The notes: generated from the letters alone by a model not told the origin. Counted from the stretch's first letter, positions 1 through 55,700 are shown. The stretch: 64,000 nucleotides of DNA from Pseudomonadota bacterium (GCA_003247575.1 QJZC01000025.1:6498-70497), one strand, 5' to 3'. Program-made: numbers and translations.

Positions 1-3000
1 GCGAGAGCTGTTCGAGCAGCAGCGACCGAACTCGGTCCTCCAGACTCTCCAGGGTCGGGTCGGTTCCCGGCTCTGTCGCTCGCATGCGCTGTGTCTCGAG
101 CCAACGCCGGCGGAATGCCAGTGGGATCCACAGCGCCCGGCCATCCGTCGATTCCGCGGGCTCTCCGGTCTCGCGCTCGACCCACTCGATCAGCCGGCGT
201 ACGGCACGCGCATCGTCGAGCGCGCCACGGACCTCGGGGAGATAGCGCCGCAATGCCTCGAGCTGAGCCCAGGACGGACCGTCCACGATCGAGGCGGCGA
301 GCGCCCAACAGCGGAGCGCTTCTCGAACGGTGTCTGCGGTGTCGTCGCCGACAGACGCGTCGCCGTCGCGAGGTGGCAGTGAGGGAAGCACTTGCTTGTC
401 GGGGGGTAGAGCGACCCCGGCCTCTCCGGAGAGGCGGCGGGCGAGCGCCTCGATGCCGCTCTCGTCGAGTGGAAACCGCGCCCAGCCGTGAGCGGCGAGC
501 GTCACGATCTCATCTTGATGCGCGGGCGTTCGTGCGCTGAGCTCGACCGGGTCGGGATCGATCCACGCGCGCTTGGGCCAGGCGGTCTCGAATGCGCACC
601 ACTCGGGTATGGCGCCCAGGCCGGCTCCCGGCGCGGACGCGAGGGAAAGGTTCCGAGAGAACACGATCAACGGAGCGCCGGCACTCTGCCGCGCGATCTC
701 GGCCACGCTCTTGGGCACCCCGGTCGCGGGATCGATCAGCACGTGCGGTGAGAAGCGGAAGTGGAGGCGTCGCATCTGCACGCCCGCGGCCTCCCAGGCA
801 TCGAGGAGGCGCTCGAATGGCCCCAACCACGGATGGTCACCGCGTTCGACGTCAATCCAGACGAATAGGGTTTGCGCAGCCGATGCGGCCGCGGTGTCCA
901 GAGGAGTGGACGCGGCGGTTGACGTCGCTACGTCGGCATCTGCGAGGTTTCCATCTGCTGCCTGCGTGGGGTCGCTACCGGACTCCAGCGTCGCGGCATC
1001 GCATGCGCGCCGTAGCCACACGGCCGTTGCCTCGATGGACGCGGGTTCGAGGGCCGCGCGCGGCTCGACCCCGAAGAGGGGGTGCCCTTCCTTCGCTCGG
1101 GAGACGCTGCTTCCTTCGAGCCCGGCGAGTTCCAGGCGGCGCACTCGTGCAAGTTCCCGCAGATGCGCGCTGCGTTCGTCCGCAAGTTGGTCGGGGAGCA
1201 GTAGCCAGCGCGCGCCCAAGAAGGTACCGATCGCGCTGAATGCAACGAGTGCGAACAAGAAGCCGTTCGAAGCCGGAGGAACGATCGGAGGACGGCGCTC
1301 CGAGATGCGGCTCAACACCGCATAGTGTTCAGTCTCCTCCGGCCCCAAGGGCCGAGCGGTCGGGGCGGCCTCCAACTCGGGAGTGGGGGCGCTGGCCCGG
1401 GTCGCAATTCCAAGCCAGAGCACGAGAGCGACGAGCACCGATCCGCCGGCGATCACACGCGCACTGCGGCCAGGAGCTGCGAGCCGACGGCCGGGTGCAC
1501 GCCTCGACGAAGCTGACTCCTGCGGGTTGCGGTGCGCAGCCGTCGACCCCTGGTTCGAATCCGTATCGATCTGGCCTGTGCGTGAAGAGGTTTGTTCGGT
1601 GACCCCCTCGCTACGAACCGGACTGAGTGCGAGCGCGTCCGCCTCGGAGCTACCGTGGGGAAGGCGTTCATCCAGGCACGCGACGAGATCTCGAAATCCG
1701 AGTGCCGGATCCCGCTGAAGGCGCAGAAACGTCGCGCGCAGATTCGCGCGCACCTGAGGGAGCAGAGGCTCTGGAATGGGGCGGCTCGCCAGGTACGCCT
1801 CCAGGTTCTCCCACTCTACCGTGCGCATGGGGGCGAGCACGGTATGCTTCGCTCTCAACGTGTGCGCAGCGGTCTCGAGCGCGCGACACACGCGCGCTTC
1901 GAACGTGCTTTCCGAGGTCACGCATTCCAGCGCAACCAGGATGCGCAGAGGATGAGACAGCTCCGCGGACTGGAACCGCTCTACGAGTCGCCCTTCGAGA
2001 AATGCACACAGGTCCCCGACGGCCTCGTCGCTCGCGAAGTCCGAACCACGAAGCTTGATGGTCAGGAAGACGCTGGCCTCGCGACTCGCTTCGCCGAGTG
2101 TGCAGACTGTGTCACCGGAGTCGTTCGGATCGTGCACTTGCCTCGCCGCGATCGATCGATTCCCAGCGGGCGAAGGGAGCGCATCCCGCAGCGCGCTCGT
2201 GAGAACCGCCTCCCACCCCTGTACACCCGTCGGATTGTTCGAGATGCCCGCCGGACCTCGAGTCCCTCCGCGGCTGGCCAGATGCACGATCCGGTGCTGC
2301 GGTACCGAGGTCGCTTCCGACAGGAAGCGATCCATTCGCATGAGCAACAGATCGATGTCGGACATGCGAGCCGCTCGGAGGACCAGAATGCTCGGGCCCG
2401 CGGCCTCACTCGCTGCACGGATCGACGCCCACTGCGGTTCGTGCGAGACGAGCAGCGCCGCGCCGTGATACGCGTCGGAGATGGTGCGAAACGTGTTGGC
2501 GGGCGCGGACGAGTCCTCGGTCTCTGGATCCGAGGAGCCGGAGACCGAGGAGCCAGAGCCCTTGGAAGGAAAGTTCGCGGCCGCTGAGGCTCGTGGCGCA
2601 CTGGTGGACACGAGCTGAATGCGCTGCGTCTCGGGGACGTCGGGCCAGAGGTCGAGCGAGGACGAGGCCTCGCCTCCACCGAGCTCGGACGTAGCCGCGG
2701 CGATTCGCGAGGCGCGCACTGCGGCCCCGAGGGAGCATCCAGTCGCGATGCTTCGGTACAGCGCGATCGAGTACTCGATCGGGTACGGTTCGACGGTCCT
2801 TCCTTCGGCTGCGATGAACGCTGGAGCGATCGGCTTGAGTTCCTCGATATCTACCTTGCCATAACAGCAATCGAGTACGAGCAGCCGTAGACCCGAATGT
2901 ACGCTCAACAGGTCGCGCAGTTCGCCTTTGCTGAGAGTGACCGGCCGCCCGGTACTCTGGTGCATCAGGATCACGCCCCCGTTGCTCCGGCCGTGCCCGC

Positions 3001-3199
3001 TCACGTGCAGGACGTCGGGCTCCAGCGCCTGCACCTGCTGCAGGAGATCTCGGGGCGCACAGGCTGGAAGATCATGGTACTCGAGCTCGTCTCGATAGGC
3101 GCCGAGCGCGAGCTTGAGTGCGTTGACCTGAATGTCTGCCGCGGTCTTCGCGGGGCCTGTCGGGTCCGACCAGACGTGAAGAATACGGAGTGGGCTCAT
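1..3199 (-). CDS. Caspase-like CHAT-domain protease, >1066 aa. The C-terminal part lies beyond the window start. Two predicted TM helices mid-protein.
   Basis: Hand translation of the minus strand from the ATG at 3199 gives an uninterrupted reading frame to position 1. The N-terminus carries a CHAT/caspase His-Cys dyad context: 'VLHVSGHG' and 'LRLLVLDCCYG'. Composition is protein-like, whereas the opposite strand gives only Arg-rich junk ORFs. It is absent from the ORF track because there is no stop inside the window. The start is uncertain: the frame stays open up to the SGNH stop at 3419 and contains an upstream GTG. Confidence 0.6.
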   Translation of the reverse strand, partial: MSPLRILHVWSDPTGPAKTAADIQVNALKLALGAYRDELEYHDLPACAPRDLLQQVQALEPDVLHVSGHGRSNGGVILMHQSTGRPVTLSKGELRDLLSVHSGLRLLVLDCCYGKVDIEELKPIAPAFIAAEGRTVEPYPIEYSIALYRSIATGCSLGAAVRASRIAAATSELGGGEASSSLDLWPDVPETQRIQLVSTSAPRASAAANFPSKGSGSSVSGSSDPETEDSSAPANTFRTISDAYHGAALLVSHEPQWASIRAASEAAGPSILVLRAARMSDIDLLLMRMDRFLSEATSVPQHRIVHLASRGGTRGPAGISNNPTGVQGWEAVLTSALRDALPSPAGNRSIAARQVHDPNDSGDTVCTLGEASREASVFLTIKLRGSDFASDEAVGDLCAFLEGRLVERFQSAELSHPLRILVALECVTSESTFEARVCRALETAAHTLRAKHTVLAPMRTVEWENLEAYLASRPIPEPLLPQVRANLRATFLRLQRDPALGFRDLVACLDERLPHGSSEADALALSPVRSEGVTEQTSSRTGQIDTDSNQGSTAAHRNPQESASSRRAPGRRLAAPGRSARVIAGGSVLVALVLWLGIATRASAPTPELEAAPTARPLGPEETEHYAVLSRISERRPPIVPPASNGFLFALVAFSAIGTFLGARWLLLPDQLADERSAHLRELARVRRLELAGLEGSSVSRAKEGHPLFGVEPRAALEPASIEATAVWLRRACDAATLESGSDPTQAADGNLADADVATSTAASTPLDTAAASAAQTLFVWIDVERGDHPWLGPFERLLDAWEAAGVQMRRLHFRFSPHVLIDPATGVPKSVAEIARQSAGAPLIVFSRNLSLASAPGAGLGAIPEWCAFETAWPKRAWIDPDPVELSARTPAHQDEIVTLAAHGWARFPLDESGIEALARRLSGEAGVALPPDKQVLPSLPPRDGDASVGDDTADTVREALRCWALAASIVDGPSWAQLEALRRYLPEVRGALDDARAVRRLIEWVERETGEPAESTDGRALWIPLAFRRRWLETQRMRATEPGTDPTLESLEDRVRSLLLEQLS

Positions 3200-3418
3200 C
3201 TCGTGGAATCCCAATATGTATGCTGATTCGTGTGGCGGACGCACCGCAATGAAGCTGGGACCCGGTGCTCTTGTACGAGCTAGCCGAACGCCGCAGGACC
3301 GTCCGAGTGCGTACAGCCCAAGCGTAGCAGCCGGCCCACCGATCGAACGATGTGCGGCTGAAGAATCCTCTGTGAATCTGAAGCGCGGGCAAAACGCCAC
3401 GCCCCCAACGAACGAACC

Positions 3419-4357
3419 TCACCCTCTCCTACTCCAACCGCTGGAATCCAACGAGAGCTCCCCCGACGAATGCCCGATCCGCGTGAGATCGATCGCGGGC
3501 GTGACGTCGATCCCGGCAGTGCCTTCGCGATGTCTGATGCGCGCCATCGCCTGCCGGGCGACTCTCCAGAGCGTAGCCTGTATCTCCGGGGCGATTGAGA
3601 CTCCGGGCACGACGATCTCCGTCGAGAGCTCGCGTGGCGCGATGGCGAGATAGACCACCGCAGCTTCGAGGTATGCGCCTTCCGGAGTCGTATGGTTCCC
3701 ATCGCGCTGGGTCATGTCGAGCTTCGTGGAGTCCTCTCGAATCAGACGGAACGCGAGTCCAACCGGCGCCACGCCGGCAGCGATCCGCCGCGAGAGCCGA
3801 AGCACATGTTCGGTCGATTGCCGCTCCTGTGCTCGAACCGATGCGGGCGTGCGCTCGGGATGATCAGGAGATTCCTCGTAGGCCCAGGCTCCCACCAAGA
3901 CGACGCGCGCACCCAGGGCGCGTGCCAGCCCAGCACAGTATCCCGCGTCTCTCGCGTATCGATCAGGATGGTAGTGGCTCTGAGCCGACTGCTCCTGGAG
4001 AACCACCACATCGAGGGGAGGTTCGAGCATCGCCGCAAAGAGTCCCAGCTCGCGATGCTGCTCGAGACTGAAGCCGGGACGCGCGATCCCTTCTATGAAG
4101 ATCGGAACGCCCGACGCGTCTCCCATCGCCTGCACGAGGTAGGGCACCTGATTCACGTAGGTATGGCTGTTGCCAACCCATGCGACTCGGAGGGCTTCGC
4201 TCGGAGCGCCGAGCCAATGATACGGCTTGAGCGCATGGCGAGGTCGCGACTTCTCGAGCAAGTGCTCCACACCGGGGGCGGCGACCACGCTCATTCCAAC
4301 GAGTAGGACGAGCAGGAGCGAGAGCCGGAGTTTCGGGACGATCACTGGATGAGTCAT
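3419..4357 (-). CDS. Secreted SGNH/GDSL-family hydrolase (DUF4886-like)
   Basis: ORF 3419..4450. Internal ATG at 4357 precedes a signal peptide (MTHPVIVPKLRLSLLLVLLVGMSVVAAP). Block I 'VAWVGNSHTY' and block V 'DGNHTTPEGAYLEAA' are typical of SGNH hydrolases. Confidence 0.6.
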   Translation of the reverse strand: MTHPVIVPKLRLSLLLVLLVGMSVVAAPGVEHLLEKSRPRHALKPYHWLGAPSEALRVAWVGNSHTYVNQVPYLVQAMGDASGVPIFIEGIARPGFSLEQHRELGLFAAMLEPPLDVVVLQEQSAQSHYHPDRYARDAGYCAGLARALGARVVLVGAWAYEESPDHPERTPASVRAQERQSTEHVLRLSRRIAAGVAPVGLAFRLIREDSTKLDMTQRDGNHTTPEGAYLEAAVVYLAIAPRELSTEIVVPGVSIAPEIQATLWRVARQAMARIRHREGTAGIDVTPAIDLTRIGHSSGELSLDSSGWSRRG

Positions 4358-4524
4358 GCGATCCCTCTGTCCACAAGCGAAGGCCCACCGCGCCTCGCGG
4401 ACGGCGCGAATGGACACGTACTCACCATCGTCGAATCTTTCACCTGACACTACGCCTCTCTTCGCATTCGAGCTGGATCCTGTCCACGTACGCTTCGGCG
4501 TCCCGAACCGCTCGATATCAACTT

Positions 4525-4800
4525 CTACGCTAGGCTACCCGCGAGGCTCCCCGGCCCCTGTAGCGGCTCCAATGCCCCCACGAGATCAGCGAGCCGTGCG
4601 ACGTCCAGTGAGGTCTCGAGGTCGAAGTGGACCACATGCTTGAAGCGGCCGGTGCGCTTCACTTGCCTGGCCAGAGTCGTCTTGCCGACCTGACGCGCTC
4701 TCACGACCGCCACCAGTGGAAGGCCCGTTGCAGCTTCTCGACTCGGGCCATTTCTGGAGGCAGCAACTCCATTTGTGAAATGCAGGAGTCTATCTCCTAA
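4525..4800 (-). pseudogene. N-terminal remnant (~90 codons) of an AAA_14/DUF4143-family ATPase. It is truncated after the Walker A region and has no proper start.
   Basis: 'LPLVAVVRARQVGKTTLARQV...HFDLETSLDVARLADLVGALEPLQG' matches the AAA_14 N-terminus (GPRQVGKTTL ... YFDLEDP..L). It is followed directly by a stop at 4525. The upstream frame opens after a TGA with no ATG/GTG/TTG before the P-loop. It abuts the GC drop of the island. Confidence 0.5.
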
Positions 4801-5096
4801 ATTTCAAAGAAAGCCGACCAGCTCCTGCCAGAACCTCACGGCCGACTTCAGCGTGGGAACAATCTCGGCGTCGGCACCTACCCTGGCTAGATGTAACAAC
4901 GTGGGTGGATTCAACAACGAGGATCTCGCAAACAGACTCCCCATCTCGAGAGTACAGGTCGGTCTGCGGCATCTGCCAAAAACTACGTCCATCGGAGCCT
5001 CAGTCGTGTGTATGATGAAAAAGTCGAGCCGGTCGTTCCATCCGGTCCGACGCCCAGAGCTTAGTCCCCCCTCAACTACGGTAGCAGGAGTCAAAA

Positions 5097-7292
5097 GTGG
5101 CAATCCTCGCGCTGAGTTCGGCCTGGGCAGGGCAACCTTCCGTTAGCCTACGAAGCCTAAGGGAATACCTGCTGGAGAATCTGCTCGCCGTCCTGCCCGA
5201 AGAAACACGCTCCGACTACTGCCTCATCCCCTATGTGCGTCATGTATTCGAAAGCCCGACGGACATCCCCGGGGGAGCCGGAGACAGGATCGGCATTCCG
5301 AATCGAGCGCCCACCCACTTCTGCTTTTCGGCAAGCGACGAAACCCTGCAATCCACGTTCGACACACGCATCGGTGAGTGCGCGATCAAGGGCTTCCGCA
5401 CCCTCCCATCGGTGCTCGACTCTCTCTATACCCCCAAGCAGCCCGACGCTCCCGCCCCGCTGAGCATCGCAATTACTCTGAGCTCGCCAGACGCCCCTAG
5501 TACCGACCGGAACCCTCCTCCTGGTGCGCCGCTCGATGCCCGGTTCCATGCCGAGCTGAGGATTCCCCGAAGCGGCGCCCTGGAGCAAGCATTGCGCGAT
5601 GTCAAGCAGATGTCCGATGTCGACGTATGGCACGGACTCTTCGATCCCAATCGAAGCTTGTACCAAAACCTGCACCTACACGCTCAGCAACTCTGCGAAG
5701 CTTTCGAGATCTCGCCAGGAATCATCGTTTATCAGTCCATCGTTGCGGCTATGTTCGATCAGATTCAAATCGCTTCCGTCTCTAGTAGCCTAGTGCACGC
5801 ACTGACGCTGTTCACTCGTTCGAGCGATCCTCTCAGCTTCGCAACTGGGGCGGTTCTCCTCTCAGCACACGCTGTTCGCAGCGGCGAGCGTCTCGAACTT
5901 GTCCGTATGCTGGAAGACGTGCACCAGAAGCTGTGCTCTCGTCCCGTCCGGCGGGATGTGCCGACGCCTGGTGTTCCTTCCTTCTCCGACACGGCCGCAC
6001 AGCAGATTCGCAAGCTTGAGGCGGTAGGTGAGCCGCCGGGCGATCAGCTGCGCGGCCCACCTTGGTCTATTTGCGAAACCATTCGCGATACGATGTGCAG
6101 ACTGGCGGGAATCGCAGAGGGAGACGATTCACTCGCGCGTCCGAGAACGCACGAAGGCGCGCGTCGCGACCCTATCGCGATGAGTGCGTTCCGGTTCCTT
6201 CATGCGTGCTCTGCCTTCTGCGACACGCGCTCGGAGGGAGTAGAGCTCGAATTCGGCTTCATGCTCGCGAACCCATTCTTGGTGCGGTATTGGCCAGGAG
6301 AGCGCCCCATTCCAATTGGCCGACTCAAGGACGGGGAGTATCAGCCGTTTCAGCTTTCTGCGCTATTGGGCCAGATTCCGGCGATCGAAAACCCGCGTCA
6401 ACGTTGCATCGCATTTCCCTACGGGGACACTCGCCTGGGAGACTCCAGGGCTCCATGTCCTGCCTATGTCATCAATCTCACTGACTTCCAGGAAGCGGTG
6501 GTCAGCTGGCCCGAGGGTAGGCTCTGGTCGTCGACTGGGGGAATCTATGCCTATCTCACCCATCACTATCCGTGGTCGATCGCGGCTCTCGTTGGTCCGG
6601 GATCACAAGTGCGTGTGTTCTGTGGCGGCCAGGTGGTCGCGTTTCGCGACGGGCGCGGTTGGCGATGTCGTGGCGACCCCGTTGCAGAATTCACCTCAGA
6701 AAAAATCTTGAGCGCTCGGGAAGCGAGACGCCTAGCACGCGCGCTGGAAGTCGCGAGTCAGCTCTCGCCGATCCTTAGAGCGACCGGTAGAGGCGGCCTG
6801 CTGGTCTACGCCGAGCAAAGGAGGTACCCCCCACCGAGTGGCTCGAACGGATCCCATGCCCAGGCTCCCCAGTCGGGCCTCTATCTACACACGCTTCATA
6901 ATGGCGAGCCTATGCGGCTCAACGGCCAACCCTGGCTCTCGGGCCGGAGCCTGCTCCGTCTTGACGCGGACTCGGAAGATTTCATCATCCGCTACGACGT
7001 AGCGCGCCTCTTGCTTCGCGCCGCCAAGATCGACGGGGCGGTATGCCTGAGCGAGGGAGCATCCGACGCCTACGACTGCCGGGTGCTCGACTTCGCCCAG
7101 TACCTGACGATCCACGATGCATCGGTTCCGATCTTCGATGCAGCCGGAGCGAAGCGGGCCACCGCTGAGAAGTTCACACAGTTTGCAGGCAGAGGAAGCT
7201 TCGCCATCGCGGTGTCGTCAGACGGCCCGATCAATGTCTACGTCGGAGGCGCCCGCTCCCCTAAACGGTGCTTCAATGAGGTCGTCAACTAA
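5097..7292 (+). CDS. Hypothetical 731-aa protein with a C-terminal divergent DisA_N/DAC (diadenylate-cyclase-like) domain; rest unknown
   Basis: GTG start with an AGGAG RBS 8 nt upstream. Residues ~612-722 align by eye to the DisA/CdaA DAC core: 'LLLRAAKIDGAVCLSEG' vs 'LYELAKMDGAIILSDSG' (DGA motif kept), and 'GAKRATAEKFTQFAGRGSFAIAVSSDGPINVYVGG' vs '[34 protein letters not shown]' (RHR replaced by KR-A). It lies in a ~55% GC island. Confidence 0.65.
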   Translation: MAILALSSAWAGQPSVSLRSLREYLLENLLAVLPEETRSDYCLIPYVRHVFESPTDIPGGAGDRIGIPNRAPTHFCFSASDETLQSTFDTRIGECAIKGFRTLPSVLDSLYTPKQPDAPAPLSIAITLSSPDAPSTDRNPPPGAPLDARFHAELRIPRSGALEQALRDVKQMSDVDVWHGLFDPNRSLYQNLHLHAQQLCEAFEISPGIIVYQSIVAAMFDQIQIASVSSSLVHALTLFTRSSDPLSFATGAVLLSAHAVRSGERLELVRMLEDVHQKLCSRPVRRDVPTPGVPSFSDTAAQQIRKLEAVGEPPGDQLRGPPWSICETIRDTMCRLAGIAEGDDSLARPRTHEGARRDPIAMSAFRFLHACSAFCDTRSEGVELEFGFMLANPFLVRYWPGERPIPIGRLKDGEYQPFQLSALLGQIPAIENPRQRCIAFPYGDTRLGDSRAPCPAYVINLTDFQEAVVSWPEGRLWSSTGGIYAYLTHHYPWSIAALVGPGSQVRVFCGGQVVAFRDGRGWRCRGDPVAEFTSEKILSAREARRLARALEVASQLSPILRATGRGGLLVYAEQRRYPPPSGSNGSHAQAPQSGLYLHTLHNGEPMRLNGQPWLSGRSLLRLDADSEDFIIRYDVARLLLRAAKIDGAVCLSEGASDAYDCRVLDFAQYLTIHDASVPIFDAAGAKRATAEKFTQFAGRGSFAIAVSSDGPINVYVGGARSPKRCFNEVVN

Positions 7293-7350
7293 CTCGTAGT
7301 GACGATCTCTTCGACTTACAAAGTAGCCTGTACGGAACGGAGATCGCAGA

Positions 7351-8475
7351 GTGACTCCCACCAAACCACCTCCCCAGAAAAAGAATGTCAGACGGACATC
7401 CAAGGGGAACGCAGCTTCCGGAGATGGACAAGAGCAGAAATGGATGACTCTGGAACAACAGAGTGACCTTCGGATCTTCATTAGCCACAAGGAGCAGAAC
7501 TCCGGGTACGCAGACGTGCTGTCACAGCATCTCAAGCTGTGGGGACTCGAAGGCGCCCAGATTATGCATACATCGGGCCCCAAGAGCCAAACGCAGGGTC
7601 CCGCGATCGGAGACGAACTGCTCGGCTTTCTGCGGGAGTTCCTGTGGGAATGCAACCTGGTCATCTACATCTACACCCACGCCAAGTTAAACTGGGAATG
7701 GTGCAACTATGAGCTGGGCGTAGCCGAGGATCGAAACACGCCAGCACGAATCGTGATCCTACAGATCTTCGAGGACGAACCCTCCGTACATCGTGATCTG
7801 CGCAGAATTCAGCTCGACAACGATCAAGACATACTGGACTTCGTGTTCGATTTTCATCGAATGCCGGATTTCTTCAAAGGTCTCCCAGGCTACTGGCAGC
7901 GCGACGACGAAACCCTGCGTCTCAATGCGAACGCGTTGATCGAAGCGCTCCGGGACGAGAAGGAGAAGGACCGCCTCGCCGAGGGGATCGAGCGAGAGGC
8001 CCGTTGGGGCTGTTTCCAACTGGGCATCGGCGGCGAGATTCTAGAACCCCTCCATGCTCGCTGGGACAAGGCTCTGACCGACGAGCGCGAGGCGATGCAG
8101 GAGGATCGGCGAGCGACGCTACGAGACAATCTCATCGTGACCGAGCGCGAGGGGTCCGGCCTCCACCACTTCGGGCTAGAGGGAGAAGGCAGCCGTATCC
8201 CCATCAAGCAACGATGGTCCGTCGGAAAGCTGGAATCGGAGTGGCGGAGCATCGTCCGGGTCCATCCTCAGGACTCCTGGCTGAACGAGCTACTCGACGA
8301 GATCTGGAGCTTTCTCGTCGGGCGGGCTAGACCGCTGCGGCTGAGGGGCTACCCCAGTGGTCAGCCTCACGTGTGCTTCGCTCCAGTGGTTACACATTGT
8401 GATCGGCACACCGATGGCAGTTGCGTGTTCAGTGTGGCGGTCTACACGTTTCGCGACGATCCCCCTATCGCATAG
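7351..8475 (+). CDS. TIR-domain protein (N-terminal TIR, C-terminal ~200-aa domain of unknown function)
   Basis: 'RIFISHKEQNSGYADVLSQHLKLWGL' (beta-A/alpha-A) and 'IGDELLGFLREFLWECNLVIYIYTHAKLNWEWCNYELGVAE' (the S..S.WC..E motif with the catalytic Glu at ~7711-7713) are diagnostic of bacterial TIR domains. GTG start at 7351 with a GGAG upstream. An alternative ATG at ~7444 sits just before the TIR. Confidence 0.7.
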   Translation: MTPTKPPPQKKNVRRTSKGNAASGDGQEQKWMTLEQQSDLRIFISHKEQNSGYADVLSQHLKLWGLEGAQIMHTSGPKSQTQGPAIGDELLGFLREFLWECNLVIYIYTHAKLNWEWCNYELGVAEDRNTPARIVILQIFEDEPSVHRDLRRIQLDNDQDILDFVFDFHRMPDFFKGLPGYWQRDDETLRLNANALIEALRDEKEKDRLAEGIEREARWGCFQLGIGGEILEPLHARWDKALTDEREAMQEDRRATLRDNLIVTEREGSGLHHFGLEGEGSRIPIKQRWSVGKLESEWRSIVRVHPQDSWLNELLDEIWSFLVGRARPLRLRGYPSGQPHVCFAPVVTHCDRHTDGSCVFSVAVYTFRDDPPIA

Positions 8476-8791
8476 GTCGTTCTCTACTCTCCGGTGAGGC
8501 TGGGAACGCACCCCGAGCCCCAGTCCGTGTGCCAATGGAGCGTGGAGAGTAGCTCACATGGTCGGCGCTCTCAGCTCGTTCCGTTCAAGGCACGTGGCGT
8601 TTGGCAACGGGGCACATCCCGGTGCGGGAGGATCGGACGGTTCTACAGTCGCCGGAGGACGGCGAAATCGATACCATCGGGCTCGACCGACGCCGTCGCT
8701 CCGCGATATCGCTCGCCCCATGTGATGCGGGAGCCGGCTGATCCCTCGGACTTTACTATCCGCTAGGCACGTTGGAGACCGCTGCTTCGCC

Positions 8792-10481: not shown

Positions 10482-11462
10482 ATGGCTCGCGATTCGACGC
10501 AGAAGGCACTCGACCGACTTGCAATTCTCCGAGATGCTCCGACCAGCGCAGAGCTGATCCGAGCACTCGAGAGCCTCTTGATCAAGGGATCGGGCCCGGT
10601 CGTGGCCTCGGTCGCGAGACTCCTCGCGGCGCGCGAACTACGCGAGCTCGAGAACGCTCTGATTCGCTCATTCGATCGCTTTCTGGGCCCAGGCCCTAGC
10701 AGGCTGGACCCCTTGTGCATCGCAAAGGAGGCGATCGTGAGGGCTCTGGTCTCGCTCGAGACCGGGATGGTCGCGAGTGAGCTGTACCGGAAAGGGAGCC
10801 TTCACGTTCAACCGGAGGCAACCGCTGATGGAAGAGTCGATACGGCCGCCGAGCTACGCGGGATTTGTGCCGAGGGACTGGTCCTCGCCGGCACCCACGA
10901 TCTCTGGCTGCTCCTCGCGGACCTGCTCGCAGACCCGGAAGTAGCTGCCCAGATCGGAGCCATCCGCGCGGTCGCTCAAACCGGGAATCCCCATATGGGT
11001 GCACCACTGCTGCGCCTGCGACTCGGCTCGGCAGACGCGGACTCGAGAGTGCCTGCCGAGTGTCTATCCGCCTTGATCTCGCTCGATCCGGTGTCGAATC
11101 TAGAGTATGTCGCGGCACGCCTCTCTCACCCGAATCCAAACCTCGCAGAGGGTGCCGCCTTCGCGCTCGGCGAATCGAGAAGCCGCGAGGCTGTCGATCT
11201 GCTTGGGACCTGGCTCGAAGGCTGGATGGACCCTGATCTTCGCCGAGTGGGCTACCTCGCGCTCTCCATGCTCCGGCTGGACGAGGCGACCTCGCTGCTT
11301 CTGCGCGAGCTGGATGAGGCCCCCATCGCGCACGCCGAGCTCGCGCTTCGGGCGCTCACCGTCGCCCAGCCGACGGAAGCCGTGAAACGTCGAATCGAGA
11401 CCGCTGTAACCGCACGGGGAGACGCCGGGCTCGAGAGGCTGCTCGCGGAACTGGTCCCCTAG
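10482..11462 (+). CDS. HEAT/PBS-lyase-type repeat protein
   Basis: Repeated helical 'A.ALG..g...AvdaL' units; no catalytic motif seen. Confidence 0.5.
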   Translation: MARDSTQKALDRLAILRDAPTSAELIRALESLLIKGSGPVVASVARLLAARELRELENALIRSFDRFLGPGPSRLDPLCIAKEAIVRALVSLETGMVASELYRKGSLHVQPEATADGRVDTAAELRGICAEGLVLAGTHDLWLLLADLLADPEVAAQIGAIRAVAQTGNPHMGAPLLRLRLGSADADSRVPAECLSALISLDPVSNLEYVAARLSHPNPNLAEGAAFALGESRSREAVDLLGTWLEGWMDPDLRRVGYLALSMLRLDEATSLLLRELDEAPIAHAELALRALTVAQPTEAVKRRIETAVTARGDAGLERLLAELVP

Positions 11463-11684
11463 CCGTCGGGGACGCAAAATGGTCGGCGGGCACTGGCCGA
11501 CACGCGCAACCGGATCTCTCTTTCACAAGCTCGTGGACCAGCTCACTCCGCTACGCAGCGCACCACCATCAACTATACTCAGCCCCCCTCTCGAGCACGG
11601 CTGCGCGCCGAGAAGCGCACTTCAAGCTCTCGTACCAAAGCCGGAGTTCAACAGAGGTGCAGACGTAGATATGGAGGTTTGAAT

Positions 11685-12719
11685 ATGAAGTCGACGAGCA
11701 TCGTGCGCGTTTTGCTATTGGCGGTCTCTATTACAGTCGGAAGCTTCACTTCCGGCGCACAAGCCGCATCCTCAGAGTTCTGCTACACCGTGGATCTGCG
11801 TGGCGGCACCGCAGAGATCTGTACTGATATCTATGAAAATCCGACAGCTCTACCCGCAGGGGCGACGATTCTGGCGGTGCCGGGTCTCACCGAGACCGCG
11901 GCCGCATGGGAGCCGCTCGTAGAGTCCATTTTTGCCGACCCGCAACTCGCGCCGTTCGTACGGCGCGTGATCGCTCTCGATCTACCGGGGCACGGCGACA
12001 GCCCCGTACCCGTCGGGCTCCCGTTTGGCCTCTTCGGTGAGCTCCTGATCGACGACAACATCAGCGTGATCATCCAATCGCTCGGTATCCTCGATGCGAG
12101 CGGTCTCGGCGCCAACGCCATCATGGCACACAGCATGGGTGGACTAGCGGTCCAGGGCGCGCAGGAAGCGTTGCTCGCAAATGGCGCCAGCCTGTCGCAC
12201 CTGGGTGTCCGCGCAGCCATTCTGCTGGCTCCCGTGCCCGCGGGGGGACAACAGTGGACGCAGCCTCCGCCGGCGGACCTGAGCCCATTCATCGTCTCGG
12301 ACCCGGCTCTCGGCACTTTCCTCGCTCTACCCCCAATCGCATTTCAGCTGGGAAACAGCTTTCGAACGACCAGCGGTGGCCTCATCCCTAATCTTCCAGG
12401 CCTAGCCCAACTGACTCCCTATGTAGGGCTCGAACCCATCGCTACGTTGCTCCAGCTCGTCGGGCAGCTCCCGATTCCACGCCCAACCGCTCGGAGCCGC
12501 GCCTTCGCGCCGAAGCATGGCACCGCGCTGTCGATCGTGTCCTTCAGCGAAGATGTGCTGGTTCCAGCTGGGGACCTGGATGATCTCTATGCGTACCTCA
12601 CGGGCCCTTCGGGCAAGCTCTATCGTCCGATAGTTGCGCCCGATGCGGTCCACGGAATGTTCATCTCCAACCCAGACGGACTGATCGAGGCGATCAAGTC
12701 CCTGCCGCTTCCGTTCTGA
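11685..12719 (+). CDS. Secreted alpha/beta-hydrolase (lipase/esterase-like)
   Basis: Signal peptide 'MKSTSIVRVLLLAVSITVGSFTSGAQA'. Nucleophile elbow 'AHSMGG'. GGAGG RBS ahead of the ATG at 11685. Lower-GC region. Confidence 0.7.
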   Translation: MKSTSIVRVLLLAVSITVGSFTSGAQAASSEFCYTVDLRGGTAEICTDIYENPTALPAGATILAVPGLTETAAAWEPLVESIFADPQLAPFVRRVIALDLPGHGDSPVPVGLPFGLFGELLIDDNISVIIQSLGILDASGLGANAIMAHSMGGLAVQGAQEALLANGASLSHLGVRAAILLAPVPAGGQQWTQPPPADLSPFIVSDPALGTFLALPPIAFQLGNSFRTTSGGLIPNLPGLAQLTPYVGLEPIATLLQLVGQLPIPRPTARSRAFAPKHGTALSIVSFSEDVLVPAGDLDDLYAYLTGPSGKLYRPIVAPDAVHGMFISNPDGLIEAIKSLPLPF

Positions 12720-13616
12720 TCGAACCCTGAAGGAGCTTTCCTCGGTTCCCTGGGATGGGTTGCTAGTCCGATCCCGGGGAACCCTCCGTTTCATCGACCC
12801 ACAGAGCGCACGACTTCCCTCGGATCGATGGAATTGCAGAGAAAGCGGAGAACGATTGGGACACAGGTCAAGCTTCGCTGGTCAACGGCGTGATTTACAC
12901 GTACGAGATCGACGTCCTCGAGCACCTTGCCCAGAACGCTAACCCGTACTTCGCCTACAACTTCGGCTCTACAGATCAAACGGGCGTACCTACTATTCGC
13001 AAATCCTCAGTCCCGTGCTCGAAAACCACTACGTAACTTCAACAGCGCGGCTCCGAACATCGTCTCCATCTCGATCAGCGGGCCAGTCCTCGCAGGCCAG
13101 CACGACGAGTCAAAGGGAGAGGCTCGGGAATCTTCGTACGAACGCTGAGCGCTACACCGTGAGCGCCGCCGTGCAGTCTAGCGCCGCATTGGAGACGCAC
13201 GGTTTCGTCAGGGAGCCACCCACAGTTTCACGGTTCCGGGCGTAATCCAGTGCAACTCGCCGCCGCGAGCCGCTCAAAGCGTCACGAAGCCGAGGCGCTG
13301 GATGACCACATATCAGAGCCTCAATGATTGTCGATCCAAGGCTCAAGACATCGCGCCCACTCGCACAGAGAATCCAGTCGGGAAGCCAACTCCACCCCCA
13401 GTCCCAGCTCAACGAAGACGCGGAAAAGTCCTACCCATCCCGCGAAGTGGCTGCTGGGGACCGCGTTCGCTGTGCGGGTCGTGGAGCGGCTTCACACGAT
13501 CTTGCGCGAGCAGTCGTCGAATCATGAGAGGGAAGCATACACCCTGTGGCTGAACTCGAGGCGCCTTGCGGTGGTCGTACCCGTGTCGTAGCGACGTGAT
13601 GCGCGATTGGCGCGGC

Positions 13617-13779: not shown

Positions 13780-15069
13780 GTGGATCCAAAAGCTTCACTC
13801 GAAACTATCGCCGTCGACGTGCAGACCTTGTGGGTACTCGTCTGCACGGCGCTGGTGCTGTTCATGCAGGCGGGGTTTTGCTGCCTGGAGGCAGGTTCCG
13901 TACGCCACAAGAACTCGATCAACGTCGCGGTGAAAAACGTCGTTGATCTATGCATCTCTTTGCCAGCCTTCTTCATAGTCGGCTATGCCTTGATGTTCGG
14001 CAGCGATTGGTTCGGATTGATCGGCACACCGATTCCCGTACTGATCGATCTCGAACCGAGCGAGCTCACGAGCTTTCTCTACCAAGCGGCATTTTGTGCA
14101 ACGGCAGCCACGATCGTGTCCGGCGGGGTCGCGGAGCGTTGCCGCTTCATGCCTTACTTGCTGGTTAGCGCAGGCGTCTCCTTGGTAATCTATCCCCTCT
14201 TCGGGCACTGGGTCTGGGGCGGTGGTTTTCTAGCCGACATGGGTTACCACGATTTCGCGGGATCCTCGGTAGTGCACATCGTGGGAGCTGGCGTGACCCT
14301 CGCGGGAATCCAGGTGCTCGGTCCGCGCCAGGGCCGCTTCGATTCAAACGGGCGATCTAGGCCGATTCCACCCTCGAGTCTCCCCATGGTGGCGCTCGGC
14401 GTGATGATCCTGTTCCTGGGCTGGATCGGCTTCAACGGCGGATCGGCGCCCCTTGGGACAGCCACACCGCAGATCGTGGTCAGCACGCTCCTGGCGGCGT
14501 GCTTCGGAGGCGCGGGAGCCATGCTGCTCGGTTGGGCACTTCGGGGCCTCGCGCAGGTGGACCTCGTCTTCAACGGCCTGCTCGGAGGTCTCGTTGCGAT
14601 CACCGCCTGTGCAGATGTCGTGGGGATTCAAGCAGCGTCGGCAATCGGCTTCCTGGGTGGGATTTCGGTGGTGCTCGGCACCTTTGTACTCGAGGTGCTC
14701 GAGCTCGACGATGCGGTGGGCGCAGTACCGGTGCACGGAGTCGCGGGCGCCGTGGGCATCGTCGCCACTGGATTCTTCGCGCGCGCATCCCTGCTCGATG
14801 AGCTCGGACTGACCCGGTTGGACTTCGTGCTCGTGCAGAGCATCGGGCTGTTCGTTTGCTTCGGGTGGTCGTATTGGGCTGGGCGCACACTCTGGACATG
14901 GGTGGGGAGCTTCACTCAGCTTCGGGTCGGAGAACTCGAGGAGCGACTTGGCATGAACTACAGCGAGCATCAGATGCCTCTCACGCACGGCGATCCATCC
15001 GCCGCCGCGACGGGCGTGTCGAGTGTCTTCGCCGTACCAGCAGCTGTAGAGGCCCGAGATGCTGGTTGA
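13780..15069 (+). CDS. amt: Ammonium transporter (Amt family)
   Basis: Multi-TM protein with 'LVLFMQAGFCCLEAGSVRHKNSINV' and 'HIVGAGVTLAGI' motifs typical of Amt/Rh. Confidence 0.9.
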   Translation: MDPKASLETIAVDVQTLWVLVCTALVLFMQAGFCCLEAGSVRHKNSINVAVKNVVDLCISLPAFFIVGYALMFGSDWFGLIGTPIPVLIDLEPSELTSFLYQAAFCATAATIVSGGVAERCRFMPYLLVSAGVSLVIYPLFGHWVWGGGFLADMGYHDFAGSSVVHIVGAGVTLAGIQVLGPRQGRFDSNGRSRPIPPSSLPMVALGVMILFLGWIGFNGGSAPLGTATPQIVVSTLLAACFGGAGAMLLGWALRGLAQVDLVFNGLLGGLVAITACADVVGIQAASAIGFLGGISVVLGTFVLEVLELDDAVGAVPVHGVAGAVGIVATGFFARASLLDELGLTRLDFVLVQSIGLFVCFGWSYWAGRTLWTWVGSFTQLRVGELEERLGMNYSEHQMPLTHGDPSAAATGVSSVFAVPAAVEARDAG

Positions 15070-16258
15070 ACCCGGCACGTTGCTCGGCCCGGTCGAACTC
15101 GGTCGCCTGCTAGACAAGGAGAAGAACTCCTGCCTCTACGAAGGGCGTCACACTCGGCTCGACCTGAACGTCGTCGTACGAGTCGCGCGCGGCCTCGCGG
15201 AAGGCGACCGGGATCGATATCTCGACGAGCTCTTCGCGACGACACGGCTGCGGAATCCAGCGATCATTCGGGCGATCGACTTCGGGCTCTACGGAGATTT
15301 GCGGTATCTGGTCTCCCTACAACCGCGTGCCGAGACGCTGGAAGCAAAGCTGGCGGCGGCCCGCGATGTCTTCGCTGAAGCACTCATCTGGAGGCTTCTA
15401 GGCGAAGCAGCTCAGGTGCTCTCGATCGCGCATGCAGCTGGAGTGGCACATCGAGAGCTGTTTCCCGCACGCGTCCATTTGGATGCCGACGGAAGCGTCC
15501 GCCTCGGCGGGTTCGGGTTCGCACCGGCTTACCTCGACCCCAGCTTCGACGAGATGAGCTCAGGACGCGGACGGACGCAGTACCTGCCACACGAATGCGT
15601 CACACGGCGCCAGGAGATCGGCCCAGCAGCCGATCTGTTTGCGCTCGGGGTCATCGCCTACGAGCTCGCATTCCAGCGGCTGCCCTTCCCACTCCTGCTT
15701 CCTGATGGGCCGACCGACGCGACCGTGCTGGCGCCCGCGCGGACGGATGGCTCGACGCACTGTTCCTCGCAACTGCTGCGGTTGATCGGGCGCTTGATCG
15801 AGCCCGATCCAGGGGCTCGACTCGCCACCGCAGCAGGCCTCCTGGAGCAGCTGCCAGCGGCGCCGGATACCGGTGAAGGCCTGGATCGAGACCGAGCGCC
15901 GGATGCGCGGACGTGCGGAGTGGGAACCAGGAGCGTGATCGCCAGAGCCGCGGCGAGCAAAGCGGGGCCCGGTTCCGACGCACCGGAGGTGCTTTCGAGG
16001 TGGCCGGAGACGGCGCCGCCGCCTGCGGCGGGAACCTCTCCAATGCAGGCCAGTAGGGACGTGAGTGAGGAGGCAGTGTCAGGCACCCCCAACGAGTTCC
16101 TGGGCGTCGCGGAGTTCCTCCAGCGACGCTTCGGAAGCGCCTCGAGTCGCTTTGCTGGCGGTGCAGTACTGCACTCGAACCTGCGCGAGAGATTTCTCGT
16201 CTGGGCGCTCCTGATCGCGCTCTCTGCAGCCGGAGCAGCGGCGCTCGCCTTCAGCTGA
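15059..16258 (+). CDS. Ser/Thr-kinase-like pseudokinase with C-terminal TM anchor
   Basis: Hanks-kinase fold is recognisable but the catalytic motifs are degenerate. 'VVVRV' replaces VAIK. 'HRELFP' replaces HRDLKP. 'GFGFA' replaces DFG. It overlaps the amt stop by 11 nt. Confidence 0.55.
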   Translation: MLVEPGTLLGPVELGRLLDKEKNSCLYEGRHTRLDLNVVVRVARGLAEGDRDRYLDELFATTRLRNPAIIRAIDFGLYGDLRYLVSLQPRAETLEAKLAAARDVFAEALIWRLLGEAAQVLSIAHAAGVAHRELFPARVHLDADGSVRLGGFGFAPAYLDPSFDEMSSGRGRTQYLPHECVTRRQEIGPAADLFALGVIAYELAFQRLPFPLLLPDGPTDATVLAPARTDGSTHCSSQLLRLIGRLIEPDPGARLATAAGLLEQLPAAPDTGEGLDRDRAPDARTCGVGTRSVIARAAASKAGPGSDAPEVLSRWPETAPPPAAGTSPMQASRDVSEEAVSGTPNEFLGVAEFLQRRFGSASSRFAGGAVLHSNLRERFLVWALLIALSAAGAAALAFS

Positions 16259-52764: not shown

Positions 52765-55700
52765 TCAAGCCTCGAAGCGCACCGTCCAGGCCGCGATCCA
52801 GCCTGGTGGGCAGCCTTGGTCAGCCAACGCGGCCTCCGCTTCGGCCCGCAGGGCCGCGCCGCGCTCGCCGCCGATCAGATCCCCCAAGCGCGCATTGCAG
52901 TAGTGGCGTTGCTGGGCGGAGGGACTCTCGCGGGCGGCCGCGGCCGCGGACTCGAACAGGGTGCGGGCTGGGTCGAGCTGTCCAGCAGCTGCGCGGAGCT
53001 GTCCGTAGAGGAATTCCGAGCAGCCAGCGAGCACTGGGGGTGCGAGGGGCTCGCCGAGCCACGTCGTCGGTCGGGCGAGCAGGGCTGCATACTGCTCGAC
53101 CTTGGCGAGCAAGCTGGCCCGATCGCCGACGCCTCGCGACACCGCGCAGAGCAGGAGCGCGGCCAGACCGGAGACGACGAGTAGATTGCTTGTCGACTTT
53201 CCACGATCGAAGCGGCCTCCGACCTCGTCCACCAGACGCAGAGCCTCTTCCAGGTTGCCTTCGGCCATCTCGAGCAACGCGAGACTGAGCAGCCCGAACC
53301 ACCGGTTGTTGTTCGAGTGCGCAGAGACGCCGATCGCGTCCGCGAGCTCGAGCCCACGGCGAATCTCGGCTCGTGCGCGATTGGCGTCGAGCGGGCCATT
53401 GAGAAGATATCCCCCTAGACAGCGCAACGTCACGCTCCCGAAGAAGTCACCCGCCGCATCTGCGAGGCGAATGCCGCGTAGACAGTGCTCACCTCCCGCC
53501 CCCATTCCGACATGATGATTGTGCGCGAGGATGACGTGGGTTCGACACATGCTGAGCTCTCTCTGCATGCCGCGGTTCTCGGGCAGGCTCAAAAGCTCCT
53601 CGGCGCGTTGCAAGTCCGCGAGCCCGAGGTCGCCGCTGCCGGAAAAGAATGCGACGTGACCGCGACAAAAGGCGATCCAGGCGCGCATCATCGGGGTATC
53701 CTGCCGCTCGAGCAAAGCGACCACGTCTGCAAGCTGACCGCCCGCGCCGACCGGGTCGAAGCTCGCCTCGAAGCAGGCCAGCAGAAGCGCGCGGCCTCGG
53801 GCGACGTGCCCTGGCTCCCCTGCTTCGAGCGCTTCGCGCACGTAGGCGATCACCAGGCCCGCGTAGCCATCGTGCACCCACGTGGTGCCCAGCGCCGCGG
53901 CCCAGAGCGTCTCGAGCCGCGCGAGTCGGGCCGGGTCGATGGCGTTCGCGTTCGTGGGTTCGAACCGGAAGCCGCGCTCGAGCAAGGCAGTCCGCGCGGG
54001 AAATCGGGCCTTCGGGTCGGTCAGGGCGTCGTAGTCGACTCCGGCATTCGCGAGCGCACGGCGCATGGCGTCGGTGCCCGCCGCGAGGTCGCCGTTGATG
54101 AAGAACTGCTCTCCGGCGCGCCGCTGCAACTCCTGCAGCCGCGTGGGATCGAGCTCGGACGCCTGCAGCAACGTGCGCGCCGCATCGCCGCGGCGCCCGC
54201 TCCCAACGCGTGCCTCGGCGAGCTCGACCAGAAGCTCCGCGCGCTCGACGTCCGAGAGCCCCGGATGCGTACACGCGGTCTCGAACAGGCTCACCGCGCG
54301 ATCGAAGGCGAACGCTTGCACCGCCGCTCTCGCCGCTCGGCGGGCGTACTCGGCACCGCGTTCGCGCTCGCCCGCACCGAGGCTGTGCTCGGCGAGCGCA
54401 TCCAGATCGAGGGGCTCCATGGATTCGAGCGCGACGGCGTAGCGGCGATGCCAGCTCGCGCGCTCCGGCAAAGGCATCGCATCGCGCACGGTCTCGCGGA
54501 TGCGATCGTGGTAGGGCCCGAGCCGACGTTCTTGAAACGCGCCGTCCCGCTTGCCCGCCACTTCGCGCACGAGGCGTTCGGCAAGCAGCGAACGCAGCTC
54601 CGCAGACACGTCGGCCTGCTGCGCAACGCGCGCGAGCAGCTCCGGCGTCACCGGTCGCGGCGCAATGCAGAGCGCCTGCACCATGGCGCGAGCGCCTTCC
54701 GATAGCTTTGCGAGCCGTGACAGGATTGCACTCCGCAGGTCGCCCGGGGCTTGCCCCGAGTGCACGGCGCGGCTGAGCTCGCCGAGCAGAAACGGGCTGC
54801 CGCCAGCTTCGCGCGCGATCTGCTCGACCCGCTCCACCTCGTCGGGGGGGAGAAGCTGCTGCGCCAGCCGACGCGACTCGGCGGGGGTGAGCGCACTGAG
54901 CTCGATCGTGCGCACGTCCAGCTCGCGCTTCACTTCGTCCTCCGCCAGCATCTGCCGGAGCGACGAAAGCCCCTCGGCGTCGGGCTCGTCGTCGCGGTAC
55001 GTGGCGACGAGCAAGAGCAGCGGCGGATCCGGCGGCAGCAGCAGATGTTTGAGCAGCCGTGCGCTGTCGCGGTCGCTCCACTGCAGATCGTCGATGTACA
55101 GGATGAGCGGTCGCTCCTCGGCGAGCTTGGCGAGCAATTCCTTGAGCGCGTCGAACGCGCGCAGCCGCAGCTCGGCGTCGTTGTTCGGCAGGCCCCGGCG
55201 CTGCGGCGCATGACTGATGGCCTCGACCCGACCGAGCACCGGGAAGACTCGCACCAGCGCGTTGACGTGCCGGGGCACCAGACGTGCCGCCACCACCTCG
55301 GGCAAGCGCGCGAGATAGCGGGTGAGCGCGTCTACGATGCCATCGAAGCCCTTGAACGGCACCGACTCGCGCTCATAGCAACGGCAGCCGAGCACGACCG
55401 CATCCCCGCGTTGCTTCACAGAGGCCAGGAAGTGCTCGACGAACGTGGTCTTGCCGATCCCCGACGGCCCGCCGGCCAAGCAGAGCACGGGCTTACCCGC
55501 ATTGGTGTCGGCCAGCGCCAGCTCCAGCGCCGCCAGTTCGCGACCACGGCCTACGAACGTCCCTTTGGGAAACGAGTCCGCCAGCTCCGCGTCGTCGCCC
55601 GACGGTCCGGACTTGGATGCACGCGTGGAACCAGGGACGCGGGCTGCACCGGGCGACGCATGCGACACCGCGCTGCCGAGCATGGCATGGATGTCGGCGT

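Follow-up and report, generated by a model that had tools for sequence, protein, structure and literature searches.

A CHAT protease predicted to be fused in frame to a transmembrane FGE-sulfatase component: a candidate single-chain variant of a bacterial ternary conflict system

Introduction

The iSTAND ternary systems of bacteria consist of a MoxR ATPase, a vWA component and a third component (Kaur, Burroughs, Iyer & Aravind 2020, eLife; PMC7159879). The vWA component has N-terminal transmembrane (TM) segments in ~28% of cases and FGE-sulfatase (FGS) is its commonest C-terminal domain, while the third component carries TIR, caspase-like, trypsin-like or adaptor domains N-terminal to an inactive STAND module (PMC7159879). 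A 2021 extension of this work added a helical linker, vWA-L, and further types of third component, iSTAND2 and TERNS3 (PMC8195603). Here we describe a gene at the left edge of a 64,000-nucleotide stretch of DNA from a Pseudomonadota bacterium (GCA_003247575.1, QJZC01000025.1:6498-70497), the whole of which was analysed and is referred to below as the window. The gene encodes a CHAT-type, caspase-fold protease domain followed by modules that appear to correspond to two separate components of such a system.

Related loci have also been described from the study of diversity-generating retroelements (DGRs). In the DGR clade-5A loci of Dore et al. (2024, PNAS; PMC10907252), the gene for a long CLec target, whose N-terminal extension is unannotated, is directly preceded by that of a MoxR-like ATPase. 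The loci also include a short target made up of CLec alone, with effectors of the TIR or caspase-like type nearby. The two accounts disagree on signalling, as it is the third component that senses the invader in the model of Kaur et al. and the lectin domain in that of Dore et al. Among socially living bacteria the MoxR-vWA ternary systems are widespread, as are their lectin sensors diversified by DGRs, but both are known only from comparative genomics, and the roles of sensing, transduction and the ATPase are disputed between the two published models.

A further group of proteins that joins a caspase to an FGE-sulfatase domain was reported by Asplund-Samuelsson et al. (2012), who listed 33 such sequences, including a cyanobacterial form with a TM pair between the domains (PMC3501461).

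Results

An open frame that runs off the window

The minus-strand frame from position 3199 to position 1 contains 1066 codons and zero stops on translation, and its product begins MSPLRILHVW. A word-indexed protein search returned a sole match, a protein of 1524 amino acids (aa; P0001) that is encoded on a 108,732-bp contig and is 100% identical across all 1066 residues encoded in the window. This protein supplies the missing C-terminus, namely a third TM helix and an FGE-sulfatase domain, both of which are encoded beyond the window edge. No relatives of P0001 were found in scans of genome and metagenome collections. An earlier note, made from the sequence of the window alone, had described an open frame of more than 1066 codons truncated by the edge, and both the translation and the identity to P0001 bear this out. 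The motifs and helices that it had pointed to are likewise all present, with HVSGHG at aa 65-70, LLVLDCCYG at aa 106-114 and two TM helices on Kyte-Doolittle hydropathy.

The GC content of the gene at codon positions 1/2/3 is 0.71/0.55/0.75, which resembles that of the native genes of the window. Because this pattern is native-like, the minus-strand frame is the true coding frame, and the overlapping plus-strand open reading frames (ORFs) are antisense shadows in GC-rich DNA. The earlier suspicion that the supplied ORF track lists spurious antisense ORFs at this position is upheld by the same measure. By omitting frames that run off the edge, the track concealed a gene larger than any other at this end of the window. 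No tRNA or Rfam features were found in the window.

A fusion of components that are separate in related operons

The full protein is arranged, from its N-terminus, as a CHAT domain (aa 1-200), a domain termed X (aa 217-520), a linker, TM helices 1 and 2, a conserved module (aa 669-1157), TM helix 3 and an FGE-sulfatase domain (aa 1223-1479). An exhaustive search of 1.84 billion representatives with HMMER gave 2481 relatives of the window protein, and these reveal its modular nature. Residues 1-200 have a homologue set of their own (E 1e-38 to 1e-12), and aa ~575-1065 are shared with ~100 homologous proteins of ~1000 aa (E 1e-46 to 1e-12), within which the alignment starts ~130-220 residues from the N-terminus. 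The best non-self match among the representatives covers aa 655-1065 only, at 173 bits. Among the 150 best matches X and the module are found together only in P0001, and the sole other X-bearer there is a protein, P0067, that is considered below. The fusion appears to be unique among the best matches from this collection.

The unfused arrangement was found with a four-sequence alignment of the module, which led to five related loci (L001-L005), four genomic and one metagenomic; a word-indexed homologue search using the middle-module alignment found nothing. Three of the genomic loci belong to Acidobacteriota and one to Polyangiaceae. Their gene order is an effector with a TIR or CHAT domain joined to X, then a MoxR-like AAA+ ATPase, and then a membrane protein composed of a head, two TM helices, the module, a further TM helix and FGE-sulfatase. 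The ATPase gene (~331-343 aa) lies directly upstream of the membrane protein gene in 5/5 loci; its product matches AAA_5 at E 8e-9 and has midasin, of the dynein-midasin-MoxR clade, as its best match in the PDB. An X-bearing effector gene is next upstream in all four loci in which the upstream region is visible, and in each of these four effectors X forms the C-terminal ~270 aa. The effector is of the CHAT+TIR type in L002, TIR in L003 and L005, and ThsB-like TIR in L004.

Aligned with these effectors, X in the window protein stops exactly at their C-termini. Missing from the fusion are the ATPase gene and the N-terminal head (~130 residues) with which the membrane component of the relatives begins. 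No AAA+ homologue or remnant was detected in the 64-kb window (tblastn, E<=0.1), nor did the window contain a reverse transcriptase, a template-repeat-like copy, or a second copy of CHAT, X or the module. Judged against the related operons, the window gene is a CHAT-X effector component fused in frame to a TM-TM-module-TM-FGS membrane component. We consider it fairly probable that its product is a single-chain membrane sensor-effector which arose by in-frame fusion of ternary-system components with loss of the ATPase.

Three of the related loci also harbor a short gene for FGE-sulfatase alone downstream. In L003 (7201-8238) and L001 (3500-4453) this gene immediately follows the long membrane FGE-sulfatase gene, and the encoded proteins (317-345 aa) have an N-terminal TM or signal anchor. 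They may represent what the DGR literature calls the "short CLec-only target". The window shows no counterpart, as the corresponding region falls past its edge.

L002, from Ca. Multivoradales within the Acidobacteriota, encodes an RVT_1 reverse transcriptase and contains a 126-139-nt repeat in three copies (Table 1). The template repeat (~12163-12291) has A at the positions where the two variable repeats differ. The 998-aa membrane FGE-sulfatase gene has one of these variable repeats at its 3' end, and the other occupies the same position in a second FGE-sulfatase ORF, 12396-13496. On this pattern of repeats, L002 carries a working-looking DGR. A second pair of direct repeats, of ~122 nt and 82% identical, is found downstream of the DGR (14947-15068 and 15506-15625).

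The CHAT protease domain

The first 200 residues are identified through their homologues, 24/27 of which match PF12770 (best E 1.2e-19). Domain partners among these homologues include SAVED, TIR, EAD9 and TPR. A CHAT family profile recovers 1564 proteins, with PF12770 present in 120/120 of the matches listed, and when searched against the PDB it finds 8tl0, in its CHAT domain, at E 7e-36, compared with E 0.46 for the window sequence alone. In a trimmed alignment every sequence has His69, and conservation of Cys112 is at least 90%; both residues are invariant in a second alignment built from profile-search matches only.

An AlphaFold model of aa 1-200, made with 45 homologues, reached a predicted local distance difference test score (pLDDT) of 81.7 and a predicted TM-score (pTM) of 0.81, against a pLDDT of 36 for the single-sequence model. 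With Foldseek, the top PDB match of the former was the activated SAVED-CHAT filament 8tl0 (E 1.6e-13, TM-score 0.75), with further matches to C11 protease, caspases 3/7/9/11, CED-3, gingipain, MALT1, Raptor, Csx29 and DdvA (8rw5, 8rot). From the alignments and the model, aa 1-200 can be read as a compact CHAT-clade, caspase-fold protease domain with an intact dyad. Neither the full protein nor the 200-aa domain matches PF12770 directly at E<=10, and the domain here is too divergent for the Pfam model unaided. The CHAT call of the earlier note stands as regards identity, on the homologues and on the profile and model matches to 8tl0, and falls only in the direct PF12770 match that it had proposed.

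Two other proteins were observed to carry this compact CHAT domain twice in tandem, P0053 (937 aa; copies at aa 520-696 and 727-905) and P0110 (628 aa; copies at aa 25-187 and 297-440).

Domain X and the linker

Domain X is related by BLASTP to aa 263-525 of the L003 TIR protein (E 3e-16) and to aa 400-608 of the L002 CHAT-TIR protein (E 6e-13), and a hidden Markov model of X (X-HMM) recognises the window protein at E 4e-100. The top Pfam match for X of L002, L003 and L004 is PF19995 (iSTAND), which in L002 and L003 is also the sole match; a profile search of the PDB with X returned nothing meaningful. X contains a degenerate P-loop-like motif, FLLHGxRxQxLDLF in the relatives and ILVLRAARMSDIDLL in the window protein. 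X is probably an inactive-STAND-like module. The low-complexity linker that follows it is presumed, from the alignment ends, to be the fusion junction, and to stand where the relatives have a stop codon, an ATPase gene and an N-terminal head.

The other X-bearer mentioned above, P0067 (347 aa, from the search of representatives), has an HTH_3 (Xre-type) domain joined to X. It recalls Thiohalocapsa DGR 8, in which a helix-turn-helix gene replaces VMAP (Dore et al.; PMC10907252). Because P0067 has this HTH-X arrangement, its sequence suggests that X is able to couple to transcriptional output besides TIR or CHAT.

The membrane part, the module and the FGE-sulfatase domain

TM helix 3 was placed with Kyte-Doolittle windows at aa 1158-1179 of P0001, past the window edge, and the relatives have three TM helices at equivalent positions. 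Clusters of Lys and Arg are found before TM1 (five residues), after TM2 (five) and before TM3 (four). By the positive-inside rule, aa 1-578 and 669-1157 would be cytoplasmic and the FGE-sulfatase domain would lie outside.

The module is marked by the motifs DVERGDHPWL, WPKRAWIDPDP and IVDGPSWAQLEALRR in the window protein, which correspond to D[VI]ExGDHPWL, WPxRAW[LI]DPDPRP and LVPD[PA]xWDQLEAIRRHF in the family. A C-terminal FGE-sulfatase domain is present in 22/32 scanned homologues of the module, and in 0/32 of them was there a Pfam domain over the module-matched region. From synteny and the literature, aa 669-1157 are presumed to be a divergent vWA followed by the helical vWA-L linker. The FGE-sulfatase domain, which has a C-type-lectin-like fold, is recognised directly, as PF03781 matches P0001 at E 2.1e-17, over its cut-off.

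Weighing the interpretation

A number of observations weigh against reading the gene as a fused ternary system. The 1066-aa product has no direct PF12770 match at E<=1, and nothing was found over the CHAT, X or middle regions when the window protein was scanned against Pfam, NCBIfam and PADLOC. The iSTAND matches of X in the relatives have E-values of 0.0036, 0.0047 and 0.031, under the 24-bit cut-off, and the window's own X has no match to the Pfam iSTAND model, such that X could be another type of third component, for example TERNS3. The middle module has no PDB match by profile search and no Pfam match. The FGE-sulfatase domain scores 64 bits in P0001 versus 146-208 in the relatives, and because of this difference it may be degenerating. 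The last 458 codons and the downstream region lie beyond the window, and a downstream ATPase, short FGS gene or DGR is possible there. Finally, no experimental study of an iSTAND-type system was found in the literature searched, and because no tested member was found there the defence role of the whole system class is a prediction.

Among the alternatives, the protein may be a physiological transmembrane signalling protease, in which the lectin-like domain senses an envelope or extracellular cue and triggers regulated proteolysis, such as that of a regulator, or the developmental cell death of a socially living bacterium. Such a role would be in keeping with the Foldseek match to the transmembrane anti-sigma factor DdvA, which has a CHAT-type domain, with the widespread caspase and FGE-sulfatase proteins, some of which have a TM pair (PMC3501461), and with a native gene composition and no known defence genes shown to be linked. 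We nevertheless think it unlikely, as the parts derive from an operon with TIR or ThsB-like effectors whose sensor is DGR-hypermutated in at least one relative, and these features are typical of conflict systems and not of housekeeping signalling. The missing ATPase can also be viewed as a sign of decay, in which case the genes on either side would have been joined when the ATPase was deleted, leaving a non-functional product. In favor of this, the MoxR-like ATPase is present in all five related loci and missing in the window, only one example of the fusion was found, and the FGE-sulfatase domain gives a weak score. At the level of motifs, WDQLEA has diverged, and not even the residual glycine survives in the P-loop-like motif of X. 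However, a frame of 1524 codons has stayed open in DNA of 65-69% GC with normal codon-position GC, and the catalytic residues (His and Cys), all three TM helices and the motifs GDHPW and DPDP have been retained, which makes decay very improbable.

The earlier note had instead placed the CHAT gene in tandem with the adjacent secreted SGNH hydrolase gene, with which it shares a reading frame across a single TGA, and had linked it to the nearby TIR island. On that reading the protease would work with the hydrolase, in tandem or by readthrough, and would belong to a TIR defence island. The two genes are adjacent on the same strand and do share a frame, and pairings of a hydrolase with a caspase are mentioned by Kaur et al. 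for VMAP ternary systems, but that pairing involves an alpha/beta-hydrolase. An SGNH gene is found beside the homologous genes in 0/5 related loci, and the two products differ in location, the SGNH protein being exported or anchored and the CHAT domain cytosolic. The shared frame itself is due to chance, because the spacer between the genes has no coding signal (GC by codon position 0.64/0.63/0.55) and ~11% of its shuffles stay open in the given frame. Readthrough into, or fusion with, the SGNH gene was rejected on the non-coding appearance of this spacer. As for the TIR island, its TIR gene (7351-8475) has SpbK- and ThsB-like matches, and related systems do use TIR effectors. The TIR protein of the window, however, has no X, does not resemble the TIR effectors of the related operons, and is encoded on the opposite strand ~4 kb away, divergent and in a patch of lower GC. 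A functional link through a common X module was rejected for want of X in this protein, and because the protein shows neither X nor effector similarity, the island looks like a separate, uncharacterised TIR system. We give very little credence to the combined proposal, and both of the linkages drawn in the earlier note are set aside. The conflict-system role that it had put forward is a reasonable one, as the parts match predicted ternary conflict operons, and it is the fused sensor-effector that we favor as its form.

Neighbouring genes

The coordinates of the features are collected in Table 1.

Table 1. Coordinates of the fusion gene, its parts and its neighbours in the window, and of the DGR repeats in L002
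Feature	Coordinates	Strand	Basis or remark
CHAT fusion gene, first 1066 of 1524 codons	1..3199	-	ATG 3199-3197; exits window on left
CHAT-type caspase-fold protease domain (predicted), aa 1-200	2600..3199	-	Homologue PF12770 matches, profile, AF2 and Foldseek
Catalytic His69 codon (predicted)	2993-2995	-	Alignment conservation
Catalytic Cys112 codon (predicted)	2864-2866	-	Alignment conservation
Domain X, aa 217-520	1640..2551	-	BLASTP to relatives' effectors; X-HMM
Low-complexity Ser/Thr/Gln/Arg-rich linker, aa 521-578 (58 residues)	1466..1639	-	Sequence, alignment ends
TM helix 1, aa 579-604	1388..1465	-	Kyte-Doolittle hydropathy 2.25
TM helix 2, aa 639-668	1196..1285	-	Kyte-Doolittle hydropathy 1.73
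Conserved, predicted cytosolic module, aa 669-1066 (onward to ~1157 outside window)	2..1195	-	~100 homologues
Non-coding spacer, SGNH to CHAT gene	3200..3418	-	219 nt; open in frame by chance
Putative SGNH-type hydrolase gene, exported or membrane-anchored	3419..4357	-	ATG 4357; alternative GTG 4450; not part of system
TIR island, two genes	5097-8475	+	731-aa protein, then 374-aa TIR protein (7351-8475)
DGR repeats of L002	10046-10181, 12163-12291, 13310-13451 (also 11140-12510)		Three-copy repeat comparison; positions within L002

The putative SGNH ORF (3419-4450, with an ATG at 4357) is a genuine gene whose product has a hydrophobic N-terminus and GNSHT and DGNH motifs, which would correspond to the block I Gly-x-Ser and block V Asp-x-x-His signatures of SGNH enzymes. 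Its product matches PDB entry 4s1p_A at E 5.6e-8, with GNSHT and DGNH aligned to GNSLT and DGVH, and DUF4886 at E 1.4e-4 and 21.4 bits, under the 26.7-bit cut-off. In the TIR island, the 374-aa protein matches TIR_2 (E 3.5e-5), PADLOC spbK (E 3.6e-8) and several ThsB models, and the 731-aa protein has no match in Pfam, NCBIfam or PADLOC. The patch that contains these genes (~4500-8500) has a GC content of 0.57-0.61, compared with 0.64-0.69 around it.

An imperfect 18-nt tandem direct repeat is located at 4884-4919 (TGGCTAGATGTAACAACG / TGGGTGGATTCAACAACG), in the intergenic stretch that separates the divergent SGNH and 731-aa genes, and is flanked by an 18-nt inverted repeat (4785-4802 / 4923-4940) that is 72% complementary. 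The tandem repeat may be an operator. Elsewhere in the window, genes for eukaryotic-type Ser/Thr protein kinases are found at 15059-16258, ~55678-56505 and ~57632-58246. Taken with the GC content of 65-69%, the presence of several such kinases may point to a myxobacterium-like or comparably complex bacterium.

Discussion

Comparison with described systems

With respect to the iSTAND ternary systems, the operons of L001-L005 correspond gene for gene, whereas the window gene joins the third and the vWA-type components in one polypeptide, and both the MoxR ATPase and the head are absent. This correspondence is to a class that is itself only computationally predicted, and within it iSTAND is assigned via sub-threshold matches and vWA by inference. 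The DGR clade-5A loci are mirrored by L002, which has exactly the same arrangement together with one template and two variable repeats. The window differs from them in having no reverse transcriptase or template repeat within its 64 kb, the 3' end of the gene, in which a variable repeat would be expected, lying outside.

In some respects the protein also resembles those caspase and FGE-sulfatase proteins in which a caspase-fold protease is found with a C-terminal FGE-sulfatase domain. Those proteases are of the C14-type p20 form and no X or vWA-like modules have been described in them, whereas the window protein belongs by its homologues to the CHAT clade and has ~1000 residues of ternary-system modules between the protease and FGE-sulfatase domains.

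The closest solved relative of the protease is the SAVED-CHAT protein of 8tl0 ("Structure of activated SAVED-CHAT filament"), which has a CHAT domain of ~190 aa with aligned GHG and NAC/DCC motifs. We take 8tl0 to be a CRISPR type III-B-associated cascade protease, the SAVED domain of which presumably binds a cyclic oligonucleotide. Its sensor is a cytosolic SAVED domain, in contrast to the periplasmic lectin-like domain that would be connected to the protease via three TM helices here.

A possible mechanism

In the mechanism that we propose, the periplasmic lectin-like domain would bind an invader-derived or foreign surface molecule; a role as the ligand-binding sensor is suggested because the corresponding domain of a relative is DGR-hypermutated. 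The signal would cross the membrane via TM3 to reach the cytosolic module and X, and these would in turn release or assemble the CHAT protease, which in SAVED-CHAT has been solved as an activated filament. Once activated, the protease would cleave cellular targets and so bring about growth arrest or death. The covalent tether may bypass the docking or remodelling step of the MoxR ATPase, or an ATPase may act in trans. That the protein is a MoxR-independent, single-chain, "death-receptor-like" molecule, in which a ligand of the lectin domain directly switches on a cytosolic caspase-like protease across the membrane, is a tentative idea and one that we hold to be rather doubtful.

Implications

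What is new here is an architectural variant, a fusion without the ATPase, of what is already known as a purely predicted class of conflict systems. The fusion argues for direct contact between the effector, or iSTAND-type, component and the membrane sensor component. If the death-receptor-like reading is correct, it would amount to Rosetta-stone evidence that, where the components are unfused, the iSTAND-type effector docks physically on the N-terminus of the membrane vWA-FGS sensor, and information would flow from the lectin sensor to the effector, as in the model of Dore et al., and not in the reverse direction, as in that of Kaur et al. The fusion is compatible with both directions of signalling, although sensing by the lectin domain fits it more naturally. 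As a one-gene construct, it would offer a simpler route to testing the outside-in activation of a bacterial caspase-like protease.

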